Part shown: positions 31,112-44,003 of the stretch, piece after piece
Position numbering within the stretch: the first letter of the stretch is position 1
How the letters are laid out: each line of letters starts with the position of its first letter
Source: an uncultured Chloroflexia bacterium
GTDB taxonomy: Bacteria; Chloroflexota; Limnocylindria; Limnocylindrales; CSP1-4
Direction: 5' to 3'
Length of the DNA: 64,000 nucleotides
Assembly (NCBI GenBank): GCA_963712745.1
Contig: CAVQJC010000001.1
Span: 452,320 to 516,319 of the forward strand
Made by a program: the position numbers and the translations under genes
The notes under the pieces: generated by a model
Databases searched by the model: none
The model's input: the letters and a program-made list of their open reading frames with translations, nothing else
Told to the model about the DNA's origin: nothing

Positions 31112-31868
31112 ATGACGACGACCCTCCCGCAAGCACTGCCTGGTCACCGGTGGCTCGTCCGGCATCGGCTATGCGGTGGCCGAGCGAGCTGCGCGACGAC
31201 GGCTGGCAGCGTGACCTCGCTCTCGCGCCGCGCGATCGCTCCGGAGGGCGTACGGACCGTCGTCGGGTGATGCCGCCGATGTCGGCGACCTGGAGCGTGC
31301 GGTCGACGCCGCGGTCGACGCCCGACGGCGGGCTTCGACGGGCTCGTGTGTGCGGCCGGCCTACCGCCCAGTCGGCCCTGGGACGATCCCGACCACTGGA
31401 GCGAGATCATCCGCGTCGACCTCACGGCCGCATGGCAGGCTTCCCGTCTGGCCTGGTCGGCGCTGCGCTCGGCGGGTGGCGCGGTCGTGCTGCTCGGCAG
31501 CATCGTGGGCAGCGGCCGAGGGTTCGACGCGTTCGCCCGCCTATGCGGCGGCCAAGGCGGGCATCGAGGGACTGGGGCGCTCACTCGCGCTCATCGGCGC
31601 GAAGGAAGGCGTGCGCGTGAACGTGCTGGCGCCCGGCGCCATCGATACGCCCTTCGACGAGACACTCTTCCCGGCGCACGATCGCCCCGACGTACCGCTC
31701 GGCCGTATGGGCACCGCGCACGAGGTGGCCGGCGTGGCCACCTTCCTGCTCTCGAGCGCAGGCCGCGTACGTCAGTGGCGCGGTGTGGCGCGTCGATGGC
31801 GGCCGCACGGCGGTCTCGCCGACGACGTCGGCCGGCGGGCAGCTCCCGAGGAGCACACCAAATCGTGA
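31112..31868 (+). CDS. Short-chain dehydrogenase/reductase, frameshifted
   Basis: ALVTGGSSGIG, YAAAKAG, VRVNVLAPGAIDT, PLGRMG, VDGG. Confidence 0.85.
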
Positions 31869-32480
31869 GCGATTCGAAGGCGCCTGGCGAGAGGATCCGG
31901 CACGGCACCCGGGGACGTGACGCCGGGCCAGGCTCGTCGGAACGTGGCGTCGGCATCAGCGCCGGTCGTCTACGACAACGACTGGATCACCGTCTACCAC
32001 GACGACGTCGCCCGGCCCAATGGCTCGCCGGCATCTACGGCGTGGTGCATTTCCGGAACATCGCGGTCGGCGTGGTCGCCATCGATGCGCTCGATCGCGT
32101 AGCCCTCGTCGGCCAGCACCGCTACGCCATCGACGAGATGTCATGGGAGATCCCGGAAGGTGGCTCGCCACATGGCGAGGAGCCACTCGAGCGGTGCCCG
32201 GCGGGAATTGCGCGAGGAGACGGGTCTGTCAGCGGCCAGATGGCAGTCGATGGGGCGCTACCACCTTTCCAACTCGGTCAGCGACGAAGTCGCGTATCTG
32301 TATCCTGGCCACCGAACTGACCGCCGGCGAGTCGTCCCCCGACGAGACAGAGGACCTGGTCCTGCGCTGGATGCCCTTCGACGAAGCATGGCCATGATCG
32401 CTGCTGGTCGAGATCACCGATGCCATGTCGGTACTGGGCCTCCAACGTGTGGCTCTCGAACGGTCTCTGGCCGACGGTGA
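31865..32480 (+). CDS. NUDIX hydrolase (ADP-ribose pyrophosphatase-like), frameshifted
   Basis: VYDNDWI, GQHRY, WEIPEGG...ARRELREETG Nudix box. Confidence 0.85.
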
Positions 32481-32563
32481 TGGCTGCGGCTCTGGAGCGC
32501 GCGACGGGCGGCAGTCTCGGACACCAGGATGGCAACAGACGAGGCTCCGGGCAACGAGCCAGA

Positions 32564-32592
32564 TTGACAGGCGTGCCACCGGCCGCTAGTGT
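32564..32592 (+). promoter_or_regulatory. Sigma70-type promoter of the aro operon leader
   Basis: TTGACA (32564-32569), 17-bp spacer, TAGTGT (32587-32592). Confidence 0.8.
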
Positions 32593-32602
32593 GCCAAGTC
32601 GC

Positions 32603-32629
32603 ATGACCTCTTATTGGTATTTTAGCTAG
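32603..32629 (+). CDS. Attenuator leader peptide MTSYWYFS
   Basis: ATG ACC TCT TAT TGG TAT TTT AGC TAG; four consecutive aromatic codons, AT-rich in a GC-rich genome, between the promoter and the terminator preceding DAHP synthase. Confidence 0.85.
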   Translation: MTSYWYFS

Positions 32630-32707
32630 CGGGTACGAGGCGGCCGGGTAGATCCCGGCGGCAAAGGCAGTCGTGCCCGCAACGCAGGAGCCCACCAGGG
32701 CACCTGC
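32629..32707 (+). promoter_or_regulatory. Attenuator alternative structures (protector stem / antiterminator)
   Basis: gcgggtacga (32629-38) pairs with tcgtgcccgc (32671-80); alternatively gcag-tc-gtgccc (32667-78) pairs with gggcac-ctgc (32698-707), the terminator 3' arm. Confidence 0.7.
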
Positions 32708-32714
32708 GTTTTTT
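32681..32714 (+). terminator. Intrinsic terminator of the attenuator
   Basis: aacgcagg-a-gccc / acca loop / gggc-a-cctgcgtt followed by a T-tract. Confidence 0.88.
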
Positions 32715-32770
32715 GTTTCCCGCGGGGGACCCGACCATGACCAAACGAAGCGGACGAGGGTGGTGAAGAG

Positions 32771-34164
32771 ATGATCATCGTGATGCGCACAGAGGCGGAC
32801 CAGGAGGAGATCGACGCGGTCAAGCAGGCCGTCGCCGACGAGGGCCTGGAAACGTACGTCATGGTGGGCGAGGAGCGCACCGTCATGGGCGTGGTCGGCG
32901 TAGGTGTCGAGCGAGTCCAGCACGTCGAGGTCATGCCCGGCGTGGAACAGGTCATCCGCGTCAGTAAGCCCTACAAGCTCGCGAGCAACGAGCATCACCC
33001 GGACCGCACGCGCATCCGCGTCGGCAACATCGAGATCGGCGCTGGCGCGCCCATCGCGATCGATCGCTGGTCCATGTGCCGTCGAATCGCGCGAGCAGGT
33101 CCTCGCGACGGCACGCTGGGTCAAGCGTGAAGGAGCCTCGATGCTGCGTGGTGGCGCCTTCAAGCCACGTTCGTCGCCCTACGCCTTCCAAGGCCTCGGC
33201 ATCGAAGGCCTCAAGTTGCTCGCGGAGGCGCGCGAGGAGACCGGCCTGCCGGTCGTCAGCGAGATCGACCGATCCAGCCCATGTGGGCGTCTTCGATGAA
33301 TACGTCGACATGCTCCAGGTGGGCGCCCGCAACATGGCCAACTTCGTCTTGCTCAAAGCGGTCGGCAAGAGCAGCAAACCCGTGCTGCTCAAGCGTGGCA
33401 TAAGTGCCACTATCGAGGAGTGGCTCATGGCGGCTGAGTACATCCTCTCGGCCGGCAACCCCAACGTCATCCTCTGCGAGCGTGGTATCCGTACCTTCGA
33501 GACGGCCACACGCAATACCCTGGATCTGTCGGCCGTCCCGGTCGTGCAGGAACGCACGCACTTGCCGGTGATGGTCGATCCATCCCACGGCACCGGCCAT
33601 CGACCGCTCGTGCGGCCGCTCGCGGTCGCCGGAGCTGCCGTCGGGGCCGACGGCATCATCATCGAGGTCCACCCCGATCCGCCCACCGCTCGATCGGACT
33701 CGGAGCAGTCGCTCTCATTCCCCGAATTCGGCGATCTGATGGACGACCTGCGTCGCCAGGAGTACCTGCGCCGGCCGACCGCACCGGGTGTACAGGTACC
33801 GGTCGATGTGCCCGTTGAACGGCGCCGTCTGCGTGGCCGTATCGATGACGTCGACGCCCGGATCGTCGCACTCATCGACGAGCGGGCCCAGCTATCGGTG
33901 GCCGTGCAGCAGTCGCGCAAGAGCGGCGAACACGGGCACGACGTGGGCCGCGAACGGGAGTTGCTCGAACGAGCCGCCAACGCCGAGGGCGGTGTCTTGC
34001 TGCCCGAGGAACGCGAGCAGGTCTTCAGCAGCATCCTGCGGGTTTCCCGCTCCGCTCAACGTCGCAGTGCGGCCGCTGCGGCAGCTGCGTCGGGAGTGGC
34101 CGCGCCGGCCGAAGCCGACGAAAGCGAGGTGGCGACAGCAGCCGCGAGCAGCGCCGCCCAGTGA
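32771..34164 (+). CDS. aroF: DAHP synthase type I-beta with N-terminal regulatory domain and C-terminal AroQ-type chorismate mutase domain, frameshifted
   Basis: MIIVMR...[68 protein letters not shown]; then [20 protein letters not shown]...DVGRERELL. Confidence 0.92.
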
Positions 34165-35516
34165 CATCGGTCGTCTCTGGAGCGACCGATCCGGCGTATC
34201 CCGGGCGAGTCACAGCGGCGGCCGGACTCGACGGCACGTTACGACTGCCGGCTGACAAGTCCGTAGCTCACCGTGCGCTGCTGTTCAACGCCATGGGCAC
34301 GGGGCAGGCCGAAGATCACGCTCTATCGCCCCGGCGATGACGTCATCTCGACGATCGAGGCGCTGCGCTCGCTCGGCGCGGTGGTGTCCGTTGCAGCCGA
34401 GAGTGACGGCATCACCCGAGTCCAGCTACAGGGTGGCGGCAGCGACGACGGAGCGATGTTGCCTGGACCGGGGGGTGAGACCCTGGACTGCGGCAACTCC
34501 GGCACGGCCATGCGCCTGTTCGCCGGTGCGCTCGCCGGTCGCCCGGGCAGCGCCACTCTCGATCGGCGATGCCTCGCTGTCCGTACGGCCCATGGAGCGG
34601 ATCGCGCGGCCGCTCCGAGAGAGCGGCGCACACATCAGTACGAGTGACGGGCATGCACCCCTGGTCATCGAGGGGCAGCAGCCGCTGCGGGCAATCCGAC
34701 ACGACCTGCCGGTCGCGAGTGCCCAGGTGCTCGGCTGTCTCGCGCTCGCGGGACTCGCTGCCGAGGGTACGACCACCATCCCGTGCCCGGACCGACGCGC
34801 GACCACAGCGAACGCATGCTGGCCTGGCTGGGAGCGCCGGTCCGACGTGACGGCCTTACGACCACGGTTTCCGGAGGGCCGGCTTCAAGGCGCGCTCGAT
34901 GACCGCACCTGGCGATATCTCGTCTGCGGCGGCATGGCTGGTGGCCGGTGCGCTTCATCCACATGCGGTCGTTCGGCTGGAGGGCGTCGGCCTGAACCCT
35001 TCACGCATCGGCATCATCGAGGTGCTGCAGGAGATGGGCGCAGATATCGCGGTCGCGAGCCCGACGCCGACGCGACCGCAGGACCTGAGCCGGTGGGCCG
35101 TATCACTGTCCGTGGCGGGCGTCAGCTCAGGGCATCCGCATCGTCGGCGATCGCGTCGCCGACATCATCGACGAGTTGCCGCTCATCGGCGTGGCCATGG
35201 CCGCCGCCGAGGGACCCAGTGAGCTGCGCGATGCGGCCGAGCTGCGGGTCAAGGAATCGGATCGCATCGCACTCGTGGTAGCCAACCTGGTGGCCATCGG
35301 AGCCGCGGCCGAGGAACTGCCCGATGGCTGGCGTGTGCGTCGCGGCAAGGCGCCGAGATGCGCACATCGCATACCGAGAGTGACCATCGCATCGCGATGT
35401 CCTTCGCCATCGCCGCCTTGACGGGCATAGCGGGTACCGTTGAGATCGACGACCCGGCGTGTGCGGCTGTCTCGTATCCGACCTTCTGGACCGACCTGGA
35501 GAAACTAAGCCGATGA
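34161..35516 (+). CDS. aroA: 3-phosphoshikimate 1-carboxyvinyltransferase (EPSP synthase), frameshifted
   Basis: [72 protein letters not shown]. Confidence 0.92.
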
Positions 35517-36801
35517 CCCTGCGACGACTACGACTCCTTACTGCTGGTGAGTCGCATGGGCCTGGCCTGTCAGGCATCCTCGACGGGCTGCCGGCGCAGC
35601 TGCGAGTCTCGACGAAGAAGGTCGATGCCGAGCTGGCCCGCCGCCAGCACGGTTACGGCAGTGGCCGGCGCATGCTCATCGAGCAGGACCGCGTGGTGTG
35701 GACAGCCGGCTTGCGCTTCGGCCGCACGCTGGGCTCGCCCCTGGCCTTCAGCATCCCCAACCGTGATTGGGACAGCTGGCAGGAACGCATGTCGGTGGAG
35801 CCGACCGCCGGGTCCAGCCGGCCCAAGCCGATCACCCTCGCACGACCCGGCCACGCTGACCTCGCGGGCGCCATCAAGTACGACACCGGCGACATCCGCG
35901 ACGTGCTGGAACGTGCCTCGGCTCGATCGACGGCTCCGCGCGTCGCGGCTGGGGCAGTCTGCCGCCAGTTGCTCGAGGAGTGCGGCGTGACCATCTGGTC
36001 GTTCGTCGATCAGCTCGGTCCGGTGCGCGCGTTCGATGGGGCGGACGAGCCCGTCACGCGGGTCCCCCACGGATGGGCCGCCCAGGACCGCGAGGGTCCG
36101 AGCCCGCTGCGTTGCCCCGACCCGGTGGCCGAGCGTGCCATGATCGAGGAAGTCGATGCGGCCATCGAGGCCGGCAATTCGGTCGGTGGTTCGTTCGTGG
36201 TGGTGGCGGAGGGCATGCCCGTGGGCATCGGCTCCAACGCGGAGTGGGACACTCGCATCGACACGGCCATCGCCGCGGTGTTGATGGGCATCCAGGCGGT
36301 CAAGGGCGTCGAGATCGGTCTGGGCTTCGGCATGGTCGGCCGGCGCGGCAGCGCCGTGCACGATGAGGTCGAGCCGGACGAGCCCGGGCTGGGTGCGCAA
36401 GACCAACCGGGCCGGCGGCACGGAAGGCGGCATGAGCAACGGCGCCTCGATCGTGGCACGCGTTGCGGTCAAGCCGGTCTCGACCTTGCGCAAGCCGCTC
36501 GATGCGGTCGATCTGGAGACCGGTCAGGTCCGACGTGCCCACATCGAGCGCAGTGACGTGGCCATCATCCCGCGCGCCGCGGTGGTGGGTGAAGGCATGC
36601 TCGCGATCGCACTGGCCGACGCTCTGCTGGCCGACCTCGGCGGCGACACGATGGCCGACCTGAAGGCCGCGGTGCGACGACGCCGCAAGCGTGCTGCGGG
36701 TCCCCGGGGCGGCCTTGGCGGCGACACCAGCGGAGCACCTTTCGGCCCTGCCCGACAATGCGGCCGCCGAGGCCTCACCGATCGCCGGCGTCGACGCTTG
36801 A
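35513..36801 (+). CDS. aroC: Chorismate synthase, frameshifted
   Basis: LTAGESHG, RRQHGYGSGRRM, RPGHAD, LERASARSTA, KGVEIG, TNRAGGTEGGMSNG, KPVST, ERSD. Confidence 0.95.
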
Positions 36802-37587
36802 ACGCTGGCGCGCTGACGTTTCGGCTCCTCGGGCACGGCATCGCCTATTCGGCGTCCCCAGCGATGATGGCGGCTGCCTTCGCCAGCTTGGACCTGCCGC
36901 ATCGATACGTGCTCGCTGACGTGCCGGCGGATGATGTCGCTGCCACGATCGCGCTGCTGCGCCGGGTCGATGCGGGCGGCGCCAACGTGACCGTGCCATA
37001 CAAAGCTGCCGTGGCGGCCCTCGTCGACGAGACCTCCGAGGCCGCCCGTGAAACCGACGCCGTTAATACCGTGGTGCGCGATGGCGCGCGGCTCATCGGA
37101 CACAACACGGACCTACCGGCGACCGTGGATGCCATCGAGCGCCTCTGCCCCAGAGGCGTGCGGTCACGCGCTCGTGCTCGGCGCGGGGGGTGCCGGGCGC
37201 GCTGTCCAGGTGGCCCTCCGCAAGGCCGGGGCCGAGCGCATCAGCGTGCTGCGACGCTCAGATGGTTCGATGGCGCGCCTGGCCGATGAGATCGCCGGTG
37301 CGGACGTGCTTGTCAATGCCACCCCGGTCGGGACAGGCGATGACGAGACACCGGTGCCACTGGCGTTGCTGCGGGCCGACCTGCCCGTGCTCGACCTGGT
37401 CTACCGCCCCAGCCCCACACGCCTGGTACGCGAAGCCCGCGCAGCCGGCGCCAGTGCCGAGGCAGGTGCGGCCATCCTGCTGGGACAGGCGTGGCGCTCG
37501 CTGGAGCTGTGGCTGGGCCGGCCCGCTCCCGTCGAGGTCATGCGCGCGGCGCTCCAGGCGGAACTCGGGGGTCAGGCCGATGCCTGA
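36798..37587 (+). CDS. aroE: Shikimate dehydrogenase, frameshifted
   Basis: LLGHGIAYSASP, GANVTVPYK, AVNT, GHNTD, VLGAGGAGRA, NATPVG, DLVY. Confidence 0.92.
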
Positions 37588-39184
37588 CGCGATCGTGCTC
37601 GTGGGCCTCTCGGGCAGCGGTAAATCGACCATCGGACGACTGGTCGCTCAGCGCCTGGCACGCACCTTCATCGACCTGGATACGGCGATCAAGCAGCGTG
37701 AGGGCGCCTCGCCGGCCAACCTGATCACCCGGCACGGAGAGGCGCATTTTCGCGAGCTCGAGGCCGGTGCGGTCCAGGCGGCAGCCGCGGTCGAAGGCGC
37801 TGTCATCGCGACCGGGGGTGGCGCCGTCATCGACCCGCTTAATCGCTGGGCCCTGTGGCACGCCGGCAGCGTGGTGTGGCTCGATGCTCCCGGAGATGTG
37901 CTCGTGGTGCGACTCACGGCCGATGATGAAGAGCGGCCTCTCCTCACCGACGATACCCTGGCGGGGCTGGCGGACCTGCGTCGACAGCGCCTGCCCTACT
38001 ACCGCGCCGCCGACCACCGTATCGATGCCACGGGCGACCAGAACGCGGTGGCCGAGGCTGTCATCACGGCCGTCGCAACGAGCGGGACCTCCGCCCGCCG
38101 ACTCTTCGATGCGGAGCTCAGACGCGATCACCCCATGGGCCCCCGCGAGGCTCGCGTCGTGCTCGGCAGCGGGCTGGACGCCGACGCAGTCGAAGCTATC
38201 ATCGGGCCGGCCAGCAGTGGCGCGCCCGTAGTCGTGGGTGACCGACGAGCGGCTGCAGCGTTGCCAGGTTTGATGCGGGCGTTGCCGACCGAACGCCGCC
38301 TGCTGATCGCCACGGGCGAGCGACAGAAGCGGTTGCGCACAGTGGAGAAGCTGCTCGAGGCGGCGAGCGCCATGGGTGCCGAACGTGGCGATGCCTGGAT
38401 CGGCGTGGGTGGTGGCACGACCACGGACATGGTCGGCGCGGCGGCGGCGCTGTACCTGCGTGGTGTGCCCTTCGTCGCCCTGCCGACGACCTGGCTGGGC
38501 ATGACCGACGCTGCCATCGGTGGCAAGGTCGGGGTGGACCTCTCAGCAGCCAAGAACGCCGCTGGCGCCTTCTGGCCGCCGGTCGCGATCGTCGCCGATG
38601 TAGCCAGCGTAAACACGCTGCCGCGAGCGCGACGGCTTGACGGCATGGCGGAGTCGCTCAAGAGCGGGCTCATCGGGGACCCCGATCTGTGGCACCTCGT
38701 GGAGACGCGTGGCCGGGCGGCGCTGCACAGCGATGAGGCAGCGCGCTATGCCGCCATCGATCGCTCGGTGCGCTTGAAGCTTGGGGTCGTGGATCGCGAC
38801 CCCTTCGAGCTGGGCGAGCGGCGCCACCTCAACCTGGGCCATACCCTCGGTCATGCGCTCGAGGTCGAAAGCCGTTATCGGCTGCCGCATGGCCAAGCGG
38901 TCGTGCTGGGTCTTCGCGCGGTGGCCGCCATGGCCCAAGGACGCGGCGCTGAGCCCGGGCTCGACCAACGCATCGACAGCGTCGTGAGTTCGCTTGGCTA
39001 CGCACTCCGGCGTGCCTTCGATGCCTCCGCCGTCATCGCCGCGCTGCGGACCGACAAGAAGCGCCACAAGGGTCGCCAGCGCTGGATCCTGCCTATGGCT
39101 GTGGGGCGCATGAGCGAGGTCGATGACGTTACCGATGCCGAGCTCGAGGCTGCCCTGCGCGTCATCAGCAGCGAGGCCAGCTGA
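37580..39184 (+). CDS. aroKB: Bifunctional shikimate kinase / 3-dehydroquinate synthase
   Basis: GLSGSGKST, DLD, FRELE, ATGGG, ERPLL; then in the same frame GGGTTTD, PTT, DAAIGGKVG, ESLKSG, LNLGHTLGHALE, HGQAV, DKK. Confidence 0.92.
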   Translation: MPDAIVLVGLSGSGKSTIGRLVAQRLARTFIDLDTAIKQREGASPANLITRHGEAHFRELEAGAVQAAAAVEGAVIATGGGAVIDPLNRWALWHAGSVVWLDAPGDVLVVRLTADDEERPLLTDDTLAGLADLRRQRLPYYRAADHRIDATGDQNAVAEAVITAVATSGTSARRLFDAELRRDHPMGPREARVVLGSGLDADAVEAIIGPASSGAPVVVGDRRAAAALPGLMRALPTERRLLIATGERQKRLRTVEKLLEAASAMGAERGDAWIGVGGGTTTDMVGAAAALYLRGVPFVALPTTWLGMTDAAIGGKVGVDLSAAKNAAGAFWPPVAIVADVASVNTLPRARRLDGMAESLKSGLIGDPDLWHLVETRGRAALHSDEAARYAAIDRSVRLKLGVVDRDPFELGERRHLNLGHTLGHALEVESRYRLPHGQAVVLGLRAVAAMAQGRGAEPGLDQRIDSVVSSLGYALRRAFDASAVIAALRTDKKRHKGRQRWILPMAVGRMSEVDDVTDAELEAALRVISSEAS

Positions 39185-39618
39185 TGAGGATCCTGCTGCT
39201 CAACGGCCCCAACCTGGGACGCCTCGGCAAGCGCCAGCCGGAGATCTACGGCAGCACCACGCTGGCCGAGGTCGAGCAGGCCTGCGCCGCTCATGCCGCG
39301 GGGCTCGGCCATGACCTCAGCGCGCTGCAATCGAACCATGAGGGTGCGCTCATCGACCGCATCGAGGTGCGTGACTACGACGCGATCGTCATCAACCCGG
39401 GTGCGCTGACGCACTATGCCTATGCACTCCACGACGCGCTGCTGGGTGCCGAATGCCCCATCGTGGAGATCCACATCAGCGACATCATGGCGCGCGAGGA
39501 GTGGCGCCATGTCTCGGTCATCGAGCCGGTCGTGAGCCATCGCATCATGGGACACGGTTGGCGTGGGTACCTCGAAGCCATCGACTTCCTGAACGATCAG
39601 GCCGTCCGGCCCGCCTGA
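39184..39618 (+). CDS. aroQ: Type II 3-dehydroquinate dehydratase
   Basis: LNGPNLGRLGKRQPEIYG, QSNHEG, NPGALTH, EIHIS. Confidence 0.95.
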   Translation: MRILLLNGPNLGRLGKRQPEIYGSTTLAEVEQACAAHAAGLGHDLSALQSNHEGALIDRIEVRDYDAIVINPGALTHYAYALHDALLGAECPIVEIHISDIMAREEWRHVSVIEPVVSHRIMGHGWRGYLEAIDFLNDQAVRPA

Positions 39619-39644
39619 TCCCTTTCGCTCCTGAGGACCTCGCC

Positions 39645-41083
39645 ATGACCCCACAACTCCCGCGTCCCGGTCTTGCCGGCGTCGCTGCCATCGAGATCAG
39701 TGCCGACACCATCTCACCCGTAGCCGCCGCGCTGCGCCTCCACCATCACGATCGACTCGCCTTCATCCTCGAATCCGTCGAGGGTGGCGCGCGCTACGGC
39801 CGCTACTCGATGGTCGGCGTGCGCGGTCGCATCCTCTCGGTCGATGGTGAAGAGGCCATCGTGCGAAGTCACGATTACACCGAGCTCGAACGCTTCCCCG
39901 CGTTCGACCCGTTGGAAGCCTTGCGGCGCCTACTGCCGGAGGCAGCCAGTCATCCCGACCTGCCGGTCTCGCTGGCGTCTGGCGTGGGCTACCTCGCGTA
40001 TGAGGCTGCGGCACGCTGGGAGCCCAAGTTGCCGGTGCCCCAGGCCAAGCCCATCGACCTGCCGCTGGCGCTCTTCCACCTGCCCGACGTGCTCATCATC
40101 TTCGACCACCTCGCGCAGACCGCCACGCTCGCGACGATCGATGGGCCAGCGGCGCAGAGGCGTCTCGAGACTGCCTCCGCGATGCTGACGCAGCCGAGTC
40201 CCGATGAGGGCATCGTGCCGATCCCGGGTGACCGAGCGCGGCACCAGCCACCGCTGGCCGATCCGGTCTATGAAGCCGGCGTGGCCAGCCTGGTCGCTGA
40301 CATCCGCGCGGGCGAGATGCTGCAGACGGTGCTGGCACGCCGCTTCTCGATGCCCTGCTCGGTCGGCCCACTGGAGATCTATCGCTCGCTGCGACGCATC
40401 AACCCCTCCCCGCACCTCTTCGCTATCGACCTGGGTCCGGGGCGTGCGCTCATCGGTGCCTCCCCGGAACTGCTGGTCAGCGTGCGCGACGGGGTCGTGG
40501 CCACGCGGCCACTCGCGGGGACACGGCCGCGCTCCGCGGATCCCGTCGAGGACCAGGCGCTGGAAGTAGAACTACTGGCAGACGAGAAGGAGCTGTCCGA
40601 GCACGCCATGCTCGTCGACCTTGCCCGTAACGACGTCGGCCGGGTGGCCACGCCCGGAAGCGTACGGGTGCCATCGCTGCATGCCATCGAGCGCTACTCG
40701 CACGTCATGCATATCGTCAGTGAGGTCGAGGGCGACCTGGCCGAAGGACGCGATGCCTTCGATGCGGTGCGGGCCGTATTCCCCGCCGGCACGCTGAGCG
40801 GCGCACCCAAGGTGCGGGCGATGCAGGCGATCGCGGCGCTCGAGCAGGAACAGCGTGGGCCATACGGTGGCGCCGTCGGCTTCCTCTCGCCGGATGACGT
40901 CGAGATCGCCATCACCATCCGCGCCATGGTGCTCGATGACGGGGTTGCCCATGTCCAGGCCGGCGCCGGTATCGTGGCTGACTCGATACCTCAGCGCGAA
41001 TCTGCCGAAGTCGCGGCCAAGGCTGGTTCGACGCTCGCCGCCCTCGCCGAAGCCGAGGCCATCTATGGAATGGAGACCGACCG

Positions 41084-41087
<4 letters not shown>
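39645..41087 (+). CDS. trpE: Anthranilate synthase component I family (chorismate-binding)
   Basis: FILES, GRYS, YRSLRRINPSP, ASPE, PLAGTRPR, EHAMLVDLARND, YSHVMHIVS, FPAGTLSGAPKVRAM, QAGAGIVADS. Confidence 0.85.
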
Positions 41088-41695
<608 letters not shown>

Positions 41696-41726: not shown

Positions 41727-42909
41727 ATGATGAAGGTCACGGTCGCGGAGCGTCGGGCCCGCGTCGGCGCACGTCACCGCGTCGCGCCGCGGCACCGCGC
41801 GGTATCGGTCAACGAGGTCGCGCAAGACCTCGTGTGTCTGCACGCGACGGACCCGGCGTCGGTCTACCTCTCAGCCTGGTCGCGCCTGCGAGAACCGTCC
41901 CACGAGGCGGTCGATGAGGCGCTCTACCGCGATCGCGATGTGGTGCGCATGCTGGCCATGCGGCGCACGATGTTCGTGGTTGCCGTCGAGGAGATTCCCG
42001 TCCTGCACGCGGCCACTTCGAAGGCCTTGGCGCGGCGCGAACGCAAGCGCAACGAGGATTACGCCGCGTTGCTTGACGACGTGGTCGACGCGAAGCGCTG
42101 GCTACGTGAAGCGGAGAGCGAGACGCTGGCCTTTCTGCACGAGCACGGCGAGGCCAGCGCCCAGGAACTCTCGGCGGCCCTGCCCGCCCTGGCGCGCAAG
42201 GTGCGCGTGAGCGCGGGCAAGAAGTACGAGGGCGATATCGGCATGTCCAGCCGCATCCTCATCGTGCTCGCGCTCGAAGGTCTCGTCGTGCGCGGGTGCC
42301 CACGTGGCACCTGGCTCAGCACCCAGTATCGCTGGGCAACGGTCGAGGACTGGCTCGGGGCACCGATGGCCGAGGTGCCTGTCGAGAAAGCACAAGCCAC
42401 GCTCATCGAACGCTGGCTGGGCCGCTTCGGGCCCGGCACCGAGCAGGACGTGCGCTGGTGGACCGGTTTGACCGCCCGGGAAGTGCGCGTGGGCCTCGCG
42501 AGCATCGGTGCCGTCGAGGTGGACCTCGACGGCGAGAAGGGCTATCTGTTGCCAGACGATCTGGCGCCAACGCCGCCACTCGAGACATGGGTCGCGCTCC
42601 TGCCGTCGCTGGACCCCACCACGATGGGCTGGCAGTCGCGCGACTGGTACCTCGGTGCGCACAAGCCGGCGATCTTCGACTCTATGGGCAACGCCGGTCC
42701 CACCATCTGGTGCGATGGGCGCATCGTGGGCGGCTGGGCCATCCGCGCTGGGGGCAGCGTAGCGACACAGGCTCCTCGAGGATGTCGGCAGCGAGATGAC
42801 CGCCGCGATCGATCGCGAGGTCGAACGCATGTCGCGCCTGCTCGGTGCACTGCGGGTCTCTCCCCGCTTCCCGTCACCGCTCCACAAAGAGCTCGCCCCC
42901 AAGACCTGA
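41727..42909 (+). CDS. Winged-helix DNA-binding protein, AlkZ/YcaQ glycosylase-like; 3' end frameshifted
   Basis: LHATDPASVYLSAWSR, AMRRTMF, WLGRFGPGT..D..WWTG, LLPSLDP, DGRIVGGW. Confidence 0.8.
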
Positions 42910-42992
42910 CGGAACCCGCCAGGCGTGCAAGCGCACTGGGCACCACCGCTCGCAGGATGTGCCGGGCTACGGCCGCGACGACCGCAGGGGCT

Positions 42993-44003
42993 TCACCCGG
43001 CTATCAGTCGGTCGGCTGCCTCATAGGGGTCCAGTTCGTAGCGCGCTACGGCCTCAAGGATGGCATCGACGGCGGCCTGGTCAGGGCCGGACCACAAGGC
43101 AGTTCGGGCACGTTCCGCCACGATGCTCTCGATCTGGAGACGCGCCCGGGCCAACCGCCTCTCGAGTGGCCGTGCTGCGCTGGCGTATCTGCGATGGTGC
43201 TGGTCGAGCGCCCCGAGCAGCTCGGCCGTACCGGCGCCGGTAAGACCTGAGGCAAGGCGAACATCCGGACGCTTGGGACGTGGGCGACCCTTGGCGATGG
43301 CGGCTGCATCAGCGGCAGCGCTGACGCTCAGCATCGCCTGCAACTGCGCGGCCGTGCGGTCGGCGCCAGGCCGATCGGACTTGTTGACCACGACGATATC
43401 GGCCACCTCGAGCAAGCCAGCCTTGATGGCCTGGACCTCGTCGCCCATCTCGGGTGCCTGCACCACGAGCGTGGTGTCGGCGATGGCGGCCACCTCGACT
43501 TCACTTTGCCCGGTGCCCACGGTCTCGATGAAGATGAGTTTGAAGCCGCAAGCGGCGAGGACCGCAGCTGCCTCAGCGGTGGTGCCGGCGAGGCCACCGA
43601 GGTGTCCGCGCGAGGCCATCGAGCGGATGAACACGTCGCCGTCAGCGGCATACTGCTGCATCCGGATGCGGTCACCCAGGATGGCGCCGCCGGTCACAGG
43701 ACTGGATGGGTCGATGGCCAGCACGGCCACCGCGCGATCAGCCTTGCGTGCCTCCGCGACGAGTGCGGATACAAGCGTGGATTTGCCACTCCCGGGAGGT
43801 CCGGTCACACCGACCAGCTGTGCCCCGATGGCACTCGAGAAAAGCAACCGCAGAGCCTCCTCCGCGACGGACGATCTCGATTCGACCGCCGTGAGCAAGC
43901 GTGTCAGCGCCAGACGTGAGCCAGATCGAGCATCTTGGGCAAGGCGAATACCTGCTCCGCTCGCACTCGGAACCGTCGCCCCGTCCACGCGCGGAGTGAT
44001 CAC
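42993..44003 (-). CDS. meaB: Methylmalonyl-CoA mutase-associated GTPase MeaB
   Basis: [61 protein letters not shown]. Confidence 0.93.

Follow-up and report, generated by a model that had tools for sequence, protein, structure and literature searches.

A compact leader with Trp, Tyr and Phe codons ahead of the shikimate-trpEG operon of uncultured Limnocylindria (Chloroflexota), very probably a ribosome-read sensor of aromatic amino acid supply

A leader element upstream of the aromatic amino acid operon

The window analyzed here, a stretch of 64,000 nucleotides from an uncultured Chloroflexia bacterium (Limnocylindria, Limnocylindrales, CSP1-4; assembly GCA_963712745.1, contig CAVQJC010000001.1, positions 452,320 to 516,319 of the forward strand), carries an operon for aromatic amino acid biosynthesis that is preceded by a leader of about 115 nt. 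In this leader a very short open reading frame (ORF) with Tyr, Trp and Phe codons is followed by a helix, here called P1, and by an intrinsic terminator, and the element is very probably a ribosome-read sensor of aromatic supply for the operon, which runs from 3-deoxy-D-arabino-heptulosonate 7-phosphate (DAHP) synthase through the shikimate pathway to trpEG. Its parts and the operon lie as follows (window coordinates):

32564..32592 (+): promoter, read from the sequence; -35 box TTGACA at 32564-69, spacer of 17 nt, -10 box TAGTGT at 32587-92
32603..32629 (+): leader ORF encoding MTSYWYFS (ATG ACC TCT TAT TGG TAT TTT AGC TAG), leaderless or nearly so
32612..32623 (+): sensor codons TAT TGG TAT TTT (Tyr Trp Tyr Phe), with a conserved core at 32615-32623 formed by the Trp codon and the two codons that follow
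32629..32680 (+): helix P1, with a lower stem (32629-38 with 32671-80), a nested hairpin (32640-62) and a 3' bulge (32663-70)
32666..32677 (+): small hairpin M (GGCA GUCG UGCC), an alternative fold predicted in all cases where P1 has its 5' strand covered
32681..32718 (+): intrinsic terminator, stem 32681-88 plus 32690-93 with 32698-701 plus 32703-10, U-run 32709-14, then G and UUU
32771..41695 (+): operon from DAHP synthase through anthranilate synthase I and II, assigned by Pfam hits

The operon begins with a DAHP synthase that has a ferredoxin-like domain and is fused to a chorismate mutase, and continues with 5-enolpyruvylshikimate-3-phosphate (EPSP) synthase, chorismate synthase, shikimate dehydrogenase, a shikimate kinase fused to dehydroquinate (DHQ) synthase, a type II dehydroquinase and anthranilate synthase I and II. 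All genes are co-directional, and a single leader thus stands ahead of all seven common steps and of both branch-point enzymes. An earlier reading of the letters by a model (the sequence-only reading) had proposed a mini-ORF with Trp, Tyr and Phe codons, a stem and a terminator ahead of the whole common aromatic pathway, and this is borne out by the conserved leaders described below and by the Pfam assignments of the operon. The promoter, the ORF MTSYWYFS without a Shine-Dalgarno sequence, the stem, its nested hairpin and the T-tailed terminator were all found where that reading had placed them. Its estimate that DAHP synthase starts about 55 nt after the terminator came close, as the ATG (32771) lies 57 nt after the end of the U-run.

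The leader ATG at 32603 lies 10 nt beyond the -10 box, the ORF ends at 32629, and no Shine-Dalgarno-like purine run precedes the ATG in the window sequence. The -10 box agrees with TATAAT at three of six positions. A simple consensus scanner called neither a promoter nor a terminator in the window, the stem of the latter carrying a mismatch, and this counts against the element. That the element is real and beyond chance follows from its conservation, not from the window sequence alone.

The minimum free energy (MFE) fold of 32593-32725 (RNAfold) has -61.5 kcal/mol, with z = -3.87 against shuffled sequences, of which one in 200 was equally stable. P1 alone contributes -33.2 kcal/mol and the terminator -20.9 kcal/mol. 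Within P1 the nested hairpin pairs 32643-48 with 32654-59 and 32640-41 with 32661-62, the bulge spans 8 nt, and the base of the helix is GC-rich (GCGGG/CCCGC), its first base being the G of the UAG stop codon. The terminator follows P1 directly, with zero unpaired bases between them in the window. The same abutment recurs in relatives: in MFE folds of the 52 leaders introduced in the next section the terminator follows P1 without a gap in 40, and the two are separated by no more than 1 nt in 45. Compared over the five basal base pairs, P1 is the stronger of the two (median -14.8 vs. -8.6 kcal/mol for the terminator) in 38 of 45 scorable folds, the remaining seven of the 52 having been dropped because the MFE fold drew other outer pairs.

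Conservation of the leader and its coding signature

The leader DNA (142 nt) was matched in 32 of 36 other genomes of the genus, while in the sister family only short and probably spurious leader matches were obtained, in 3 of 24 genomes. A covariance model built from 35 distinct leaders was then applied to 151 genomes of the class, 21 of which gave a match, the window's own genome included. With that genome set aside, the matches fall into a second family (16/50 genomes) and into other genera of the window's own family (4/44), and none was found elsewhere in the class (0/6, 0/49 and 0/1 genomes). The four matches in the own family comprise two weak full-length relatives, which belong to a divergent form that we call type 2, and two partial hairpin matches in unrelated sequence. 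The weak model matches L132, L133 and L135 were rejected as partial hairpin matches in unrelated sequence. Among 151 genomes drawn from the phylum, the sole match outside the class was weak and fell on a leader of another kind, which is Trp-only. Of the 16 genomes of the second family, two are unpublished and were counted in these tallies only; with their loci and duplicates excluded, 49 distinct leaders of the main form (type 1) remained for comparison.

In all 49 the ATG, the frame and the UAG stop are kept, and the length of the ORF changes by whole codons only, with 8 sense codons in 31 leaders and 9 in 18. The fourth codon before the stop is TGG throughout. The codon after Trp encodes Tyr or Phe in 45 leaders and Ser in four, the second after Trp encodes Phe or Tyr in all 49, and the codon preceding Trp is aromatic in 34. 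At the last sense codon the residue is small and varies (S, A, G, V, T, I, R), codons 2-4 are free to vary, and both synonymous forms of the Tyr (TAT/TAC) and Phe (TTT/TTC) codons are in use across the leaders. One clade has the order W-Y-F, and other clades have W-F-Y or W-Y-Y. As read from the sequences, this coding pattern is that of a translated sensor set by its codon content, and not that of a conserved RNA motif. A single sensor of the three aromatic amino acids together, as had been suggested from the window, is a fair reading of these data, since W, F and Y are all present in 47 of the 49 leaders (counted from the printed list).

The promoter is conserved along with the ORF. Among the 47 leaders that could be parsed by pattern, the -35 box is TTGACA in 46 and TTGACT in one, and a spacer of 17 or 18 nt separates it from a -10 box that fits TAnnnT; in the two others (L015 and L121) TTGACA and TAnnnT are visible by eye. 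The end of the -10 box lies 8-12 nt before the ATG in the 47 parsed leaders, with a mode of 10 nt, so that the 5' untranslated part would comprise at most a few bases, in agreement with the near-leaderless start already proposed for the window.

Type-2 leaders were found in other genera of the family (L130, L131 and L041), where the encoded peptides are MTRFYWFTDPA, VQAHHFLFMDPA and MSTFFFYRTPA, respectively, each followed by the stop codon. Here the stop is UGA and lies within the 5' strand of P1. One of the type-2 leaders has lost most aromatic codons (F-L-F-M).

For the analysis of base pairing, the 49 type-1 and three type-2 leaders were aligned by fitting them to the model structure. In this alignment of 52 leaders, standard pairs make up 99.0% of 1416 cells, and changes on both sides are seen at 13 of the 28 pairs. 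None of 500 column shuffles reached the observed pairing values, and sliding the partners by 1-3 columns left 31.8-47.6% paired. The lower stem of P1 is paired in 99.6% of cells (three pairs changed on both sides), the nested hairpin in 99.2% (five pairs) and the terminator in 98.2% (five pairs), with free covariation in the nested hairpin and in the upper terminator stem. An independent MAFFT/RNAalifold run on 35 sequences returned the same three helices. A short ORF, its aromatic codons and covarying stems are thus all conserved upstream of the DAHP synthase genes of relatives, which is what the sequence-only reading had proposed to look for.

The uneven conservation of the helices also bears on a different explanation, namely that P1 is bound by a trans-acting protein, tRNA or ligand, or acts on the polymerase in the manner of the phage put RNA, with the ORF modulating access. 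The lower stem of P1 with its bulge and the lower stem of the terminator are near-invariant while the DAHP synthases are only 62-73% identical, and the nested hairpin and the upper terminator stem covary freely meanwhile, as would be expected if the lower parts were recognized as such. However, no Rfam family scored above threshold, the loci read show no conserved gene next to the leader that would be a candidate regulator, and the conserved aromatic codons already account for a sensor. We consider such a factor quite unlikely. The best Rfam match was Atu_C8 (RF02502, an sRNA of Rhizobiales), which aligned over its full model to 32598-32724 with 27.5 bits (E = 0.0082), below its gathering threshold of 50. 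The layout of the Atu_C8 model is alike, with a helix enclosing a nested hairpin and then a terminator. A literature search for Atu_C8 returned nothing relevant, and the paper on rnTrpL makes no link to it. Otherwise the Rfam scan of 31500-33500, with matches up to E = 10, gave no leader family. The T-box model had no hit at E up to 10, and T-boxes are usually about twice as long as this leader. The Trp_leader model (RF00513) had no match in the whole genome, whereas the control search with it did find E. coli.

Spacing between the sensor codons and helix P1

The distance between the codons and the helix is fixed. In the window the first bases of the Trp, Tyr and Phe codons of the conserved core lie 14, 11 and 8 nt before P1, and the distance of 8 nt from the first base of the last sensor codon to P1 recurs without exception in the 49 type-1 and the three type-2 leaders. 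Even in the unrelated leader with four Trp codons from another Chloroflexota family (L136, see below) the stem again begins 8 nt after the first base of the last Trp codon. According to a study of bacterial ribosomes, the mRNA channel extends 11 nt beyond the first base of the P site and stem-loops located 11-12 nt downstream stay folded at its entrance (PMC7282821). From this channel length and the spacing in the leaders it follows that a ribosome waiting at the W, F or Y codon would leave P1 closed, while a ribosome with the stop codon in its A site would open about 7 of the 10 base pairs of the lower stem. With the last sensor codon in the A site, the first pair of P1 is positioned exactly at the channel entrance.

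This spacing is at odds with a central element of the sequence-only reading, in which P1 serves as a protector whose 5' strand is covered by the stalled ribosome, the freed 3' strand then pairing with and destroying the terminator. The invariant Trp codon is 14 nt from P1 and thus beyond the cover of a ribosome stalled there, and the Tyr and Phe codons are too distant as well (11 and 8 nt). The ribosome that does cover the 5' strand is the one at the stop codon, i.e., in the replete state, so that the proposed switch logic would be reversed.

Search for a base-paired antiterminator

The same reading had named a specific antiterminator, 32667-78 with 32698-707. Its complementarity in the window is genuine (10 bp with a 2-nt bulge, -15.8 kcal/mol) but is not shared by relatives: over 51 distinct sequences 69.6% of cells are paired, no more than the 69.7% that shuffled columns average, and the observed figure was reached by 408 of 500 shuffles. 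Of the ten pairs, two take a standard form in just 10 of 48 and 13 of 50 sequences, respectively. The pairing is also 5 kcal/mol weaker than the terminator (-15.8 vs. -20.9 kcal/mol), and it cannot form first because it uses the 3' strand of the terminator, for which the nearer 5' strand competes.

We examined ribosome effects on the folding of all 52 leaders. When ribosome-covered regions were masked in equilibrium folds of the full-length leader, the terminator kept a probability of at least 0.9 in 50 of the 52 in all three ribosome states. The same procedure leaves the terminator of E. coli trpL at 0.94-0.96, and since this known switch is missed as well, equilibrium masking is uninformative. 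In a second test the transcript was cut just before the 3' strand of the terminator and folded with the ribosome region masked. Here the trpL switch is recovered, its terminator 5' strand being paired at 0.06 without a ribosome, 0.62 with the ribosome at either Trp codon and 0.01 at the stop, with a gain of -9.3 kcal/mol in the stalled state. In the 52 leaders the corresponding median was 0.30 with the ribosome at the sensor codons (above 0.5 in two leaders; gain -1.5 kcal/mol) and 0.41-0.42 with the 5' strand of P1 covered, in which case the 3' strand of P1 and the terminator 5' strand can combine into a weak hairpin (gain of -3.8 kcal/mol in the median, from -1.4 to -8.2). No classical antiterminator is therefore detectable in the 52 leaders by a test that recovers the trpL switch. 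Taken together, neither the complementarity in the window nor the weak hairpin makes up for the lack of conservation, for the order in which the strands emerge and for the position of the Trp codon, and we regard the protector model as very unlikely.

Without a ribosome the terminator 5' strand was paired at a median of 0.54, because the U-rich aromatic codons pair with this purine-rich strand. The resulting helix, P0, appears in MFE folds of the untranslated, truncated RNA; we rejected it as a functional element, as its stability did not exceed that obtained with shuffled ORF letters (median z +0.51, with 0 of 51 leaders below -1.64). Hairpin M appears in structures of the window when the masked edge is placed at 32633 or beyond. 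It is pairable in 96.4% of cells, and its columns hardly vary and so provide no covariation support. The bulge of P1 contains a GCAGAGG motif, a candidate decoy for the 3' strand of the terminator, which is present in the type-1 leaders and in L041 and not in L130 or L131. The AGAGG of this bulge also resembles a Shine-Dalgarno sequence, and a second ORF starting behind it from GUG at 32673 was considered and discarded, its frame being unconserved: in 48 leaders it ends 15 times at the ATGA of DAHP synthase, stops earlier in 16 and runs on in 17 (L032 was left out because its DAHP synthase start did not fit the pattern). A search of the alignment for other conserved alternative helices of at least 4 bp gave nothing convincing.

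That a base-paired antiterminator is undetectable could be taken to mean that no switch exists and that a leaky constitutive terminator, or an sRNA or peptide with some other role, is at hand, the aromatic codons serving a peptide function. In rhizobia, terminated leader RNAs can indeed act in trans (PMC6614838). But leaders rich in aromatic codons stand ahead of DAHP synthase genes of unrelated lineages as well (15 of 71 loci, see below), the positional pattern of W, F and Y right before a helix and a terminator is the signature of attenuation, and a strong constitutive terminator ahead of nine biosynthetic genes would be wasteful. We hold the absence of any switch to be highly improbable.

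Proposed mechanism

Our favored reading, to which we assign a probability of about 0.5, is that of a ribosome-read attenuator in which a closed P1 results in read-through and a ribosome that has passed the sensor codons permits termination. Transcription would begin within a few bases of the ATG and a ribosome would translate the 8-codon ORF. If Trp-, Phe- or Tyr-tRNA is scarce, the ribosome would wait at the respective sensor codon, reaching just to the base of P1, which could then close as soon as its 3' strand is made, and RNA polymerase would read through. If all three tRNAs are charged, the ribosome would move on to the spacer and stop codons and occupy or unzip the GC-rich base of P1; the freed 3' strand might fold into hairpin M (GGCA-NNNN-UGCC) or serve as a single-stranded linker, and the terminator would be completed. 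As any one of the three shortages would delay the ribosome, the element would follow OR logic. The direction of the switch is moderately supported. The arrangement is that of region 2 of the trp leader and not of region 1, region 2 being left free when the ribosome stalls and covered once it has reached the stop; the same source uses timing values of similar magnitude for trp (50 nt/s, 15 codons/s, release 1/s; PMC1183508).

How a closed P1 could prevent termination is a separate and more tentative part of this proposal. Because P1 abuts the 5' strand of the terminator, it may hinder the latter sterically: the basal pairs of the terminator must form inside the RNA exit channel of the polymerase, and a rigid abutting P1 could not follow the 5' strand into the channel unless several of its base pairs were opened, so that the base of one of the two helices, P1 or terminator, would have to remain unpaired. 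The terminator would then be controlled without a base-paired antiterminator, by a GC-clamped abutting helix that blocks it and that is unzipped by the ribosome once past the Trp, Phe and Tyr codons. We consider this possible, though doubtful.

A number of points weigh against the favored reading or its parts. P1 and the terminator of type-1 leaders share no nucleotides, and nearest-neighbor folding lets both form. We know of no experimental precedent for a steric antiterminator made by an abutting helix, and riboswitches in their 'off' state have a closed helix only a few bases upstream of a working terminator. With release proceeding at about 1/s, the terminator may be completed only after the ribosome has gone, which would mean a high basal level of read-through. 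Because P1 and the terminator hardly vary in their lower stems, the pairing of these stems is backed by few events, consisting of GC/CG swaps in the three type-2 sequences and a single GC-to-AU change. Moreover, the alignment from which pairs were counted was fitted to the model structure and leans towards it, and the genomes are kin, so that the counts overstate the number of independent events. In the window copy the downstream genes are frame-broken. Its DAHP synthase is spread over three frames, which change near 33055-61 and near 33266-68, and EPSP synthase, chorismate synthase and shikimate dehydrogenase are likewise split over frames (within 32771-37600), which reflects either indel errors of the assembly or a decaying copy. 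Finally, the RNA data are sparse: in two public RNA runs, searched as contigs only, 0.08 and 0.05 of the sampled words were present. One RNA-library contig of 190 nt, identical to the window, extends from 32610 across the terminator to 32798 and into DAHP synthase, a weak hint that read-through RNA exists, which may however be DNA carry-over. No transcript ends were seen among these contigs, which cover the region in part.

Since it is the stop-codon position that opens P1, one could also imagine that the ribosome is held at the stop independently of tRNA charging, either by a TnaC-like nascent peptide together with free aromatic amino acids or as a report of translation capacity. The leader being leaderless and very short, and the untranslated RNA folding with P1 closed, are compatible with this. 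A peptide of 8-9 residues, on the other hand, is short for a sensor in the exit tunnel. The order of F and Y, the residue before Trp, the last residue and the stop itself (UAG in type 1, UGA in type 2) vary, and this variability fits codon content better than a specific peptide; the pairing of the ORF with the terminator 5' strand, no better than that of shuffled ORFs (P0, above), speaks against this alternative too. We judge it unlikely and retain tRNA-dependent attenuation as the preferred explanation.

Relation to known attenuators

The general idea is not new, as attenuation by leader peptides is textbook knowledge and Corynebacterium is known to have an aromatic leader before DAHP synthase. 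In Corynebacterium glutamicum aroR-aroF, a short leader peptide with Phe-Tyr-Phe precedes the DAHP synthase gene and stalling raises read-through (PMC11802643, PMC4046766). The Limnocylindria element resembles it in that aromatic codons of a short leader peptide stand upstream of a DAHP synthase gene, a comparison of described functions and not of sequences. The aroR leader is reported without a Trp codon and with a response to Phe only, whereas here Trp is invariant and all three aromatics are represented; the present element also differs in its phylum, in its ORF of 8-9 codons and in its position ahead of the whole common pathway together with chorismate mutase and trpEG. Actinobacterial leaders can lack a ribosome-binding site, for which ilvB is cited (PMC4046766). 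Putative attenuators before aromatic supraoperons have been listed generically (PMC1173090).

With E. coli trpL and pheL the element shares an ORF with codons of the end products, a terminator and a presumed race between ribosome and polymerase. In our reading the 5' strand of P1 would play the part of region 2 of trpL, free when the ribosome is stalled and covered when it is at the stop. In contrast to trpL and pheL there is no pairing of the kind formed by regions 1 and 2, and no antiterminator sharing bases with the terminator was found here. Of the features by which classical attenuators are recognized, the leader thus has the end-product-codon ORF and a predicted terminator before the first structural gene, and lacks a detectable antiterminator that shares terminator bases upon stalling. 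It would work like a classical attenuator and is not filed as a member of that class.

Leaders in which one peptide serves several end products are known from the enterobacterial ilvGMEDA (Ile, Leu, Val) and thr (Thr, Ile) operons. The similarity lies in the presence of codons for several end products in one leader, so that any shortage relieves termination (OR logic); these leaders are longer, though, and use runs of codons and classical alternative hairpins, while here a single codon, or at most two, is present per amino acid. A further likeness is to the leaderless polycysteine sORFs of mycobacteria, described as amino acid sensors at the 5' end of operons that free the next gene's Shine-Dalgarno sequence, without a terminator (10.1101/834739). 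Those, by this description, act on translation initiation, whereas in Limnocylindria an intrinsic terminator follows.

The form seen here, a leaderless ORF of 8-9 codons with essentially one codon each for Trp, Phe and Tyr, is the most compact that we have encountered. The sequence-only reading knew of no characterized leader of this kind in Chloroflexota, and our literature searches agree with it: in full-text searches, which did not cover subscription journals, we found no description of this element or of any aromatic leader-peptide attenuator in the phylum. If our interpretation is correct, the leader represents a natural OR gate that responds to three amino acids and precedes one operon with seven shikimate steps and both branch-point enzymes, and it would extend ribosome-mediated attenuation to the Limnocylindria, a class of uncultured Chloroflexota for which these searches returned no earlier report. 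The missing antiterminator together with the rigid spacing of sensor, helix and terminator would make it a simple test case for the question whether an abutting helix can block an intrinsic terminator, and the steric reading, if true, would amount to a non-overlapping antiterminator coupled to a minimal sensor of three amino acids. In practical terms the element could serve as an annotation marker for aromatic-pathway operons and as a compact part for synthetic biosensors.

Other aromatic leaders upstream of DAHP synthase genes

In a survey of other lineages, aromatic-rich leader ORFs were found before 15 of 71 type I-beta DAHP synthase loci, compared to 0 of 71 on the opposite strand and 3.9% in shuffled sequences. 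A distinct conserved family occurs in Desulfobacterota and Nitrospirota, with leaders of 23-34 codons that are rich in F, W and Y and end in VCPSxRRx directly before the stop; it comprises the loci L046, L049, L052, L053, L065, L069, L071, L073, L084 and L101, in each of which the 400 nt upstream of the DAHP synthase match were read. In these leaders the codons GUCUGCCCAUCG are complementary to the terminator 5' strand AUGGGUAGAC, i.e., the strand located right 3' of the aromatic codons and encoding VCPS pairs with the 5' strand of the terminator. In five of seven leaders of Desulfobacterota tested, this pairing is predicted with the ribosome at the last aromatic codon and is lower with the ribosome at the stop, and these leaders may thus be an independent parallel to the logic in which a ribosome at the stop opens the regulatory helix. 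No papers describing leaders of the VCPS type were found in our literature searches.

Another relative by function was found in a different Chloroflexota family (L136:1474-1640), where a DAHP synthase homolog (51% identical) is preceded by a Trp-only leader, MACRTHLSNRLGWWWWRSSLASARLA, followed by its stop codon. Here the ORF runs on through the stem, the 3' end of the stem overlaps the base of the terminator, and opening of the stem lengthens the terminator from 7 to 13 bp. From its sequence and layout we regard it as a Trp-specific paralog of the same idea. Like the Limnocylindria element, the leaders of Desulfobacterota, Nitrospirota and other Chloroflexota combine an F/W/Y-rich ORF with a terminator before the same gene family and place the regulatory strand about 8 nt after the last sensor codon. 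They differ from it in their length (23-34 codons) with many aromatic codons and in a clear base-paired antiterminator that is independent of a Shine-Dalgarno sequence, and no sequence similarity between them and the Limnocylindria element is evident.

A second operon copy and the neighboring gene

The same assembly, which is 84.6% complete with 5.0% contamination, holds a second, syntenic copy of the operon (contig C2:140140-149268; L002) whose proteins are 65-85% identical to those of the window. It has its own leader, with the peptide MHQYWYFS followed by the stop and 82% DNA identity to that of the window, before an intact DAHP synthase-chorismate mutase of 456 aa. As most relatives have a single copy of the operon, this could reflect two populations that were binned together or a large duplication. 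A search of the whole genome for the layout of the leader (TTGACN, 16-18 nt, TAnnnT, 5-12 nt, a start codon, an ORF of 4-30 codons and a T-run) returned only these two aro leaders. A third DAHP synthase (contig C4:33121-34110; 56% identical and without the chorismate mutase part) has neither a leader ORF nor a terminator upstream. In the window, a gene for an AlkZ-like DNA glycosylase (41727-43250) follows directly after trpG on the same strand.

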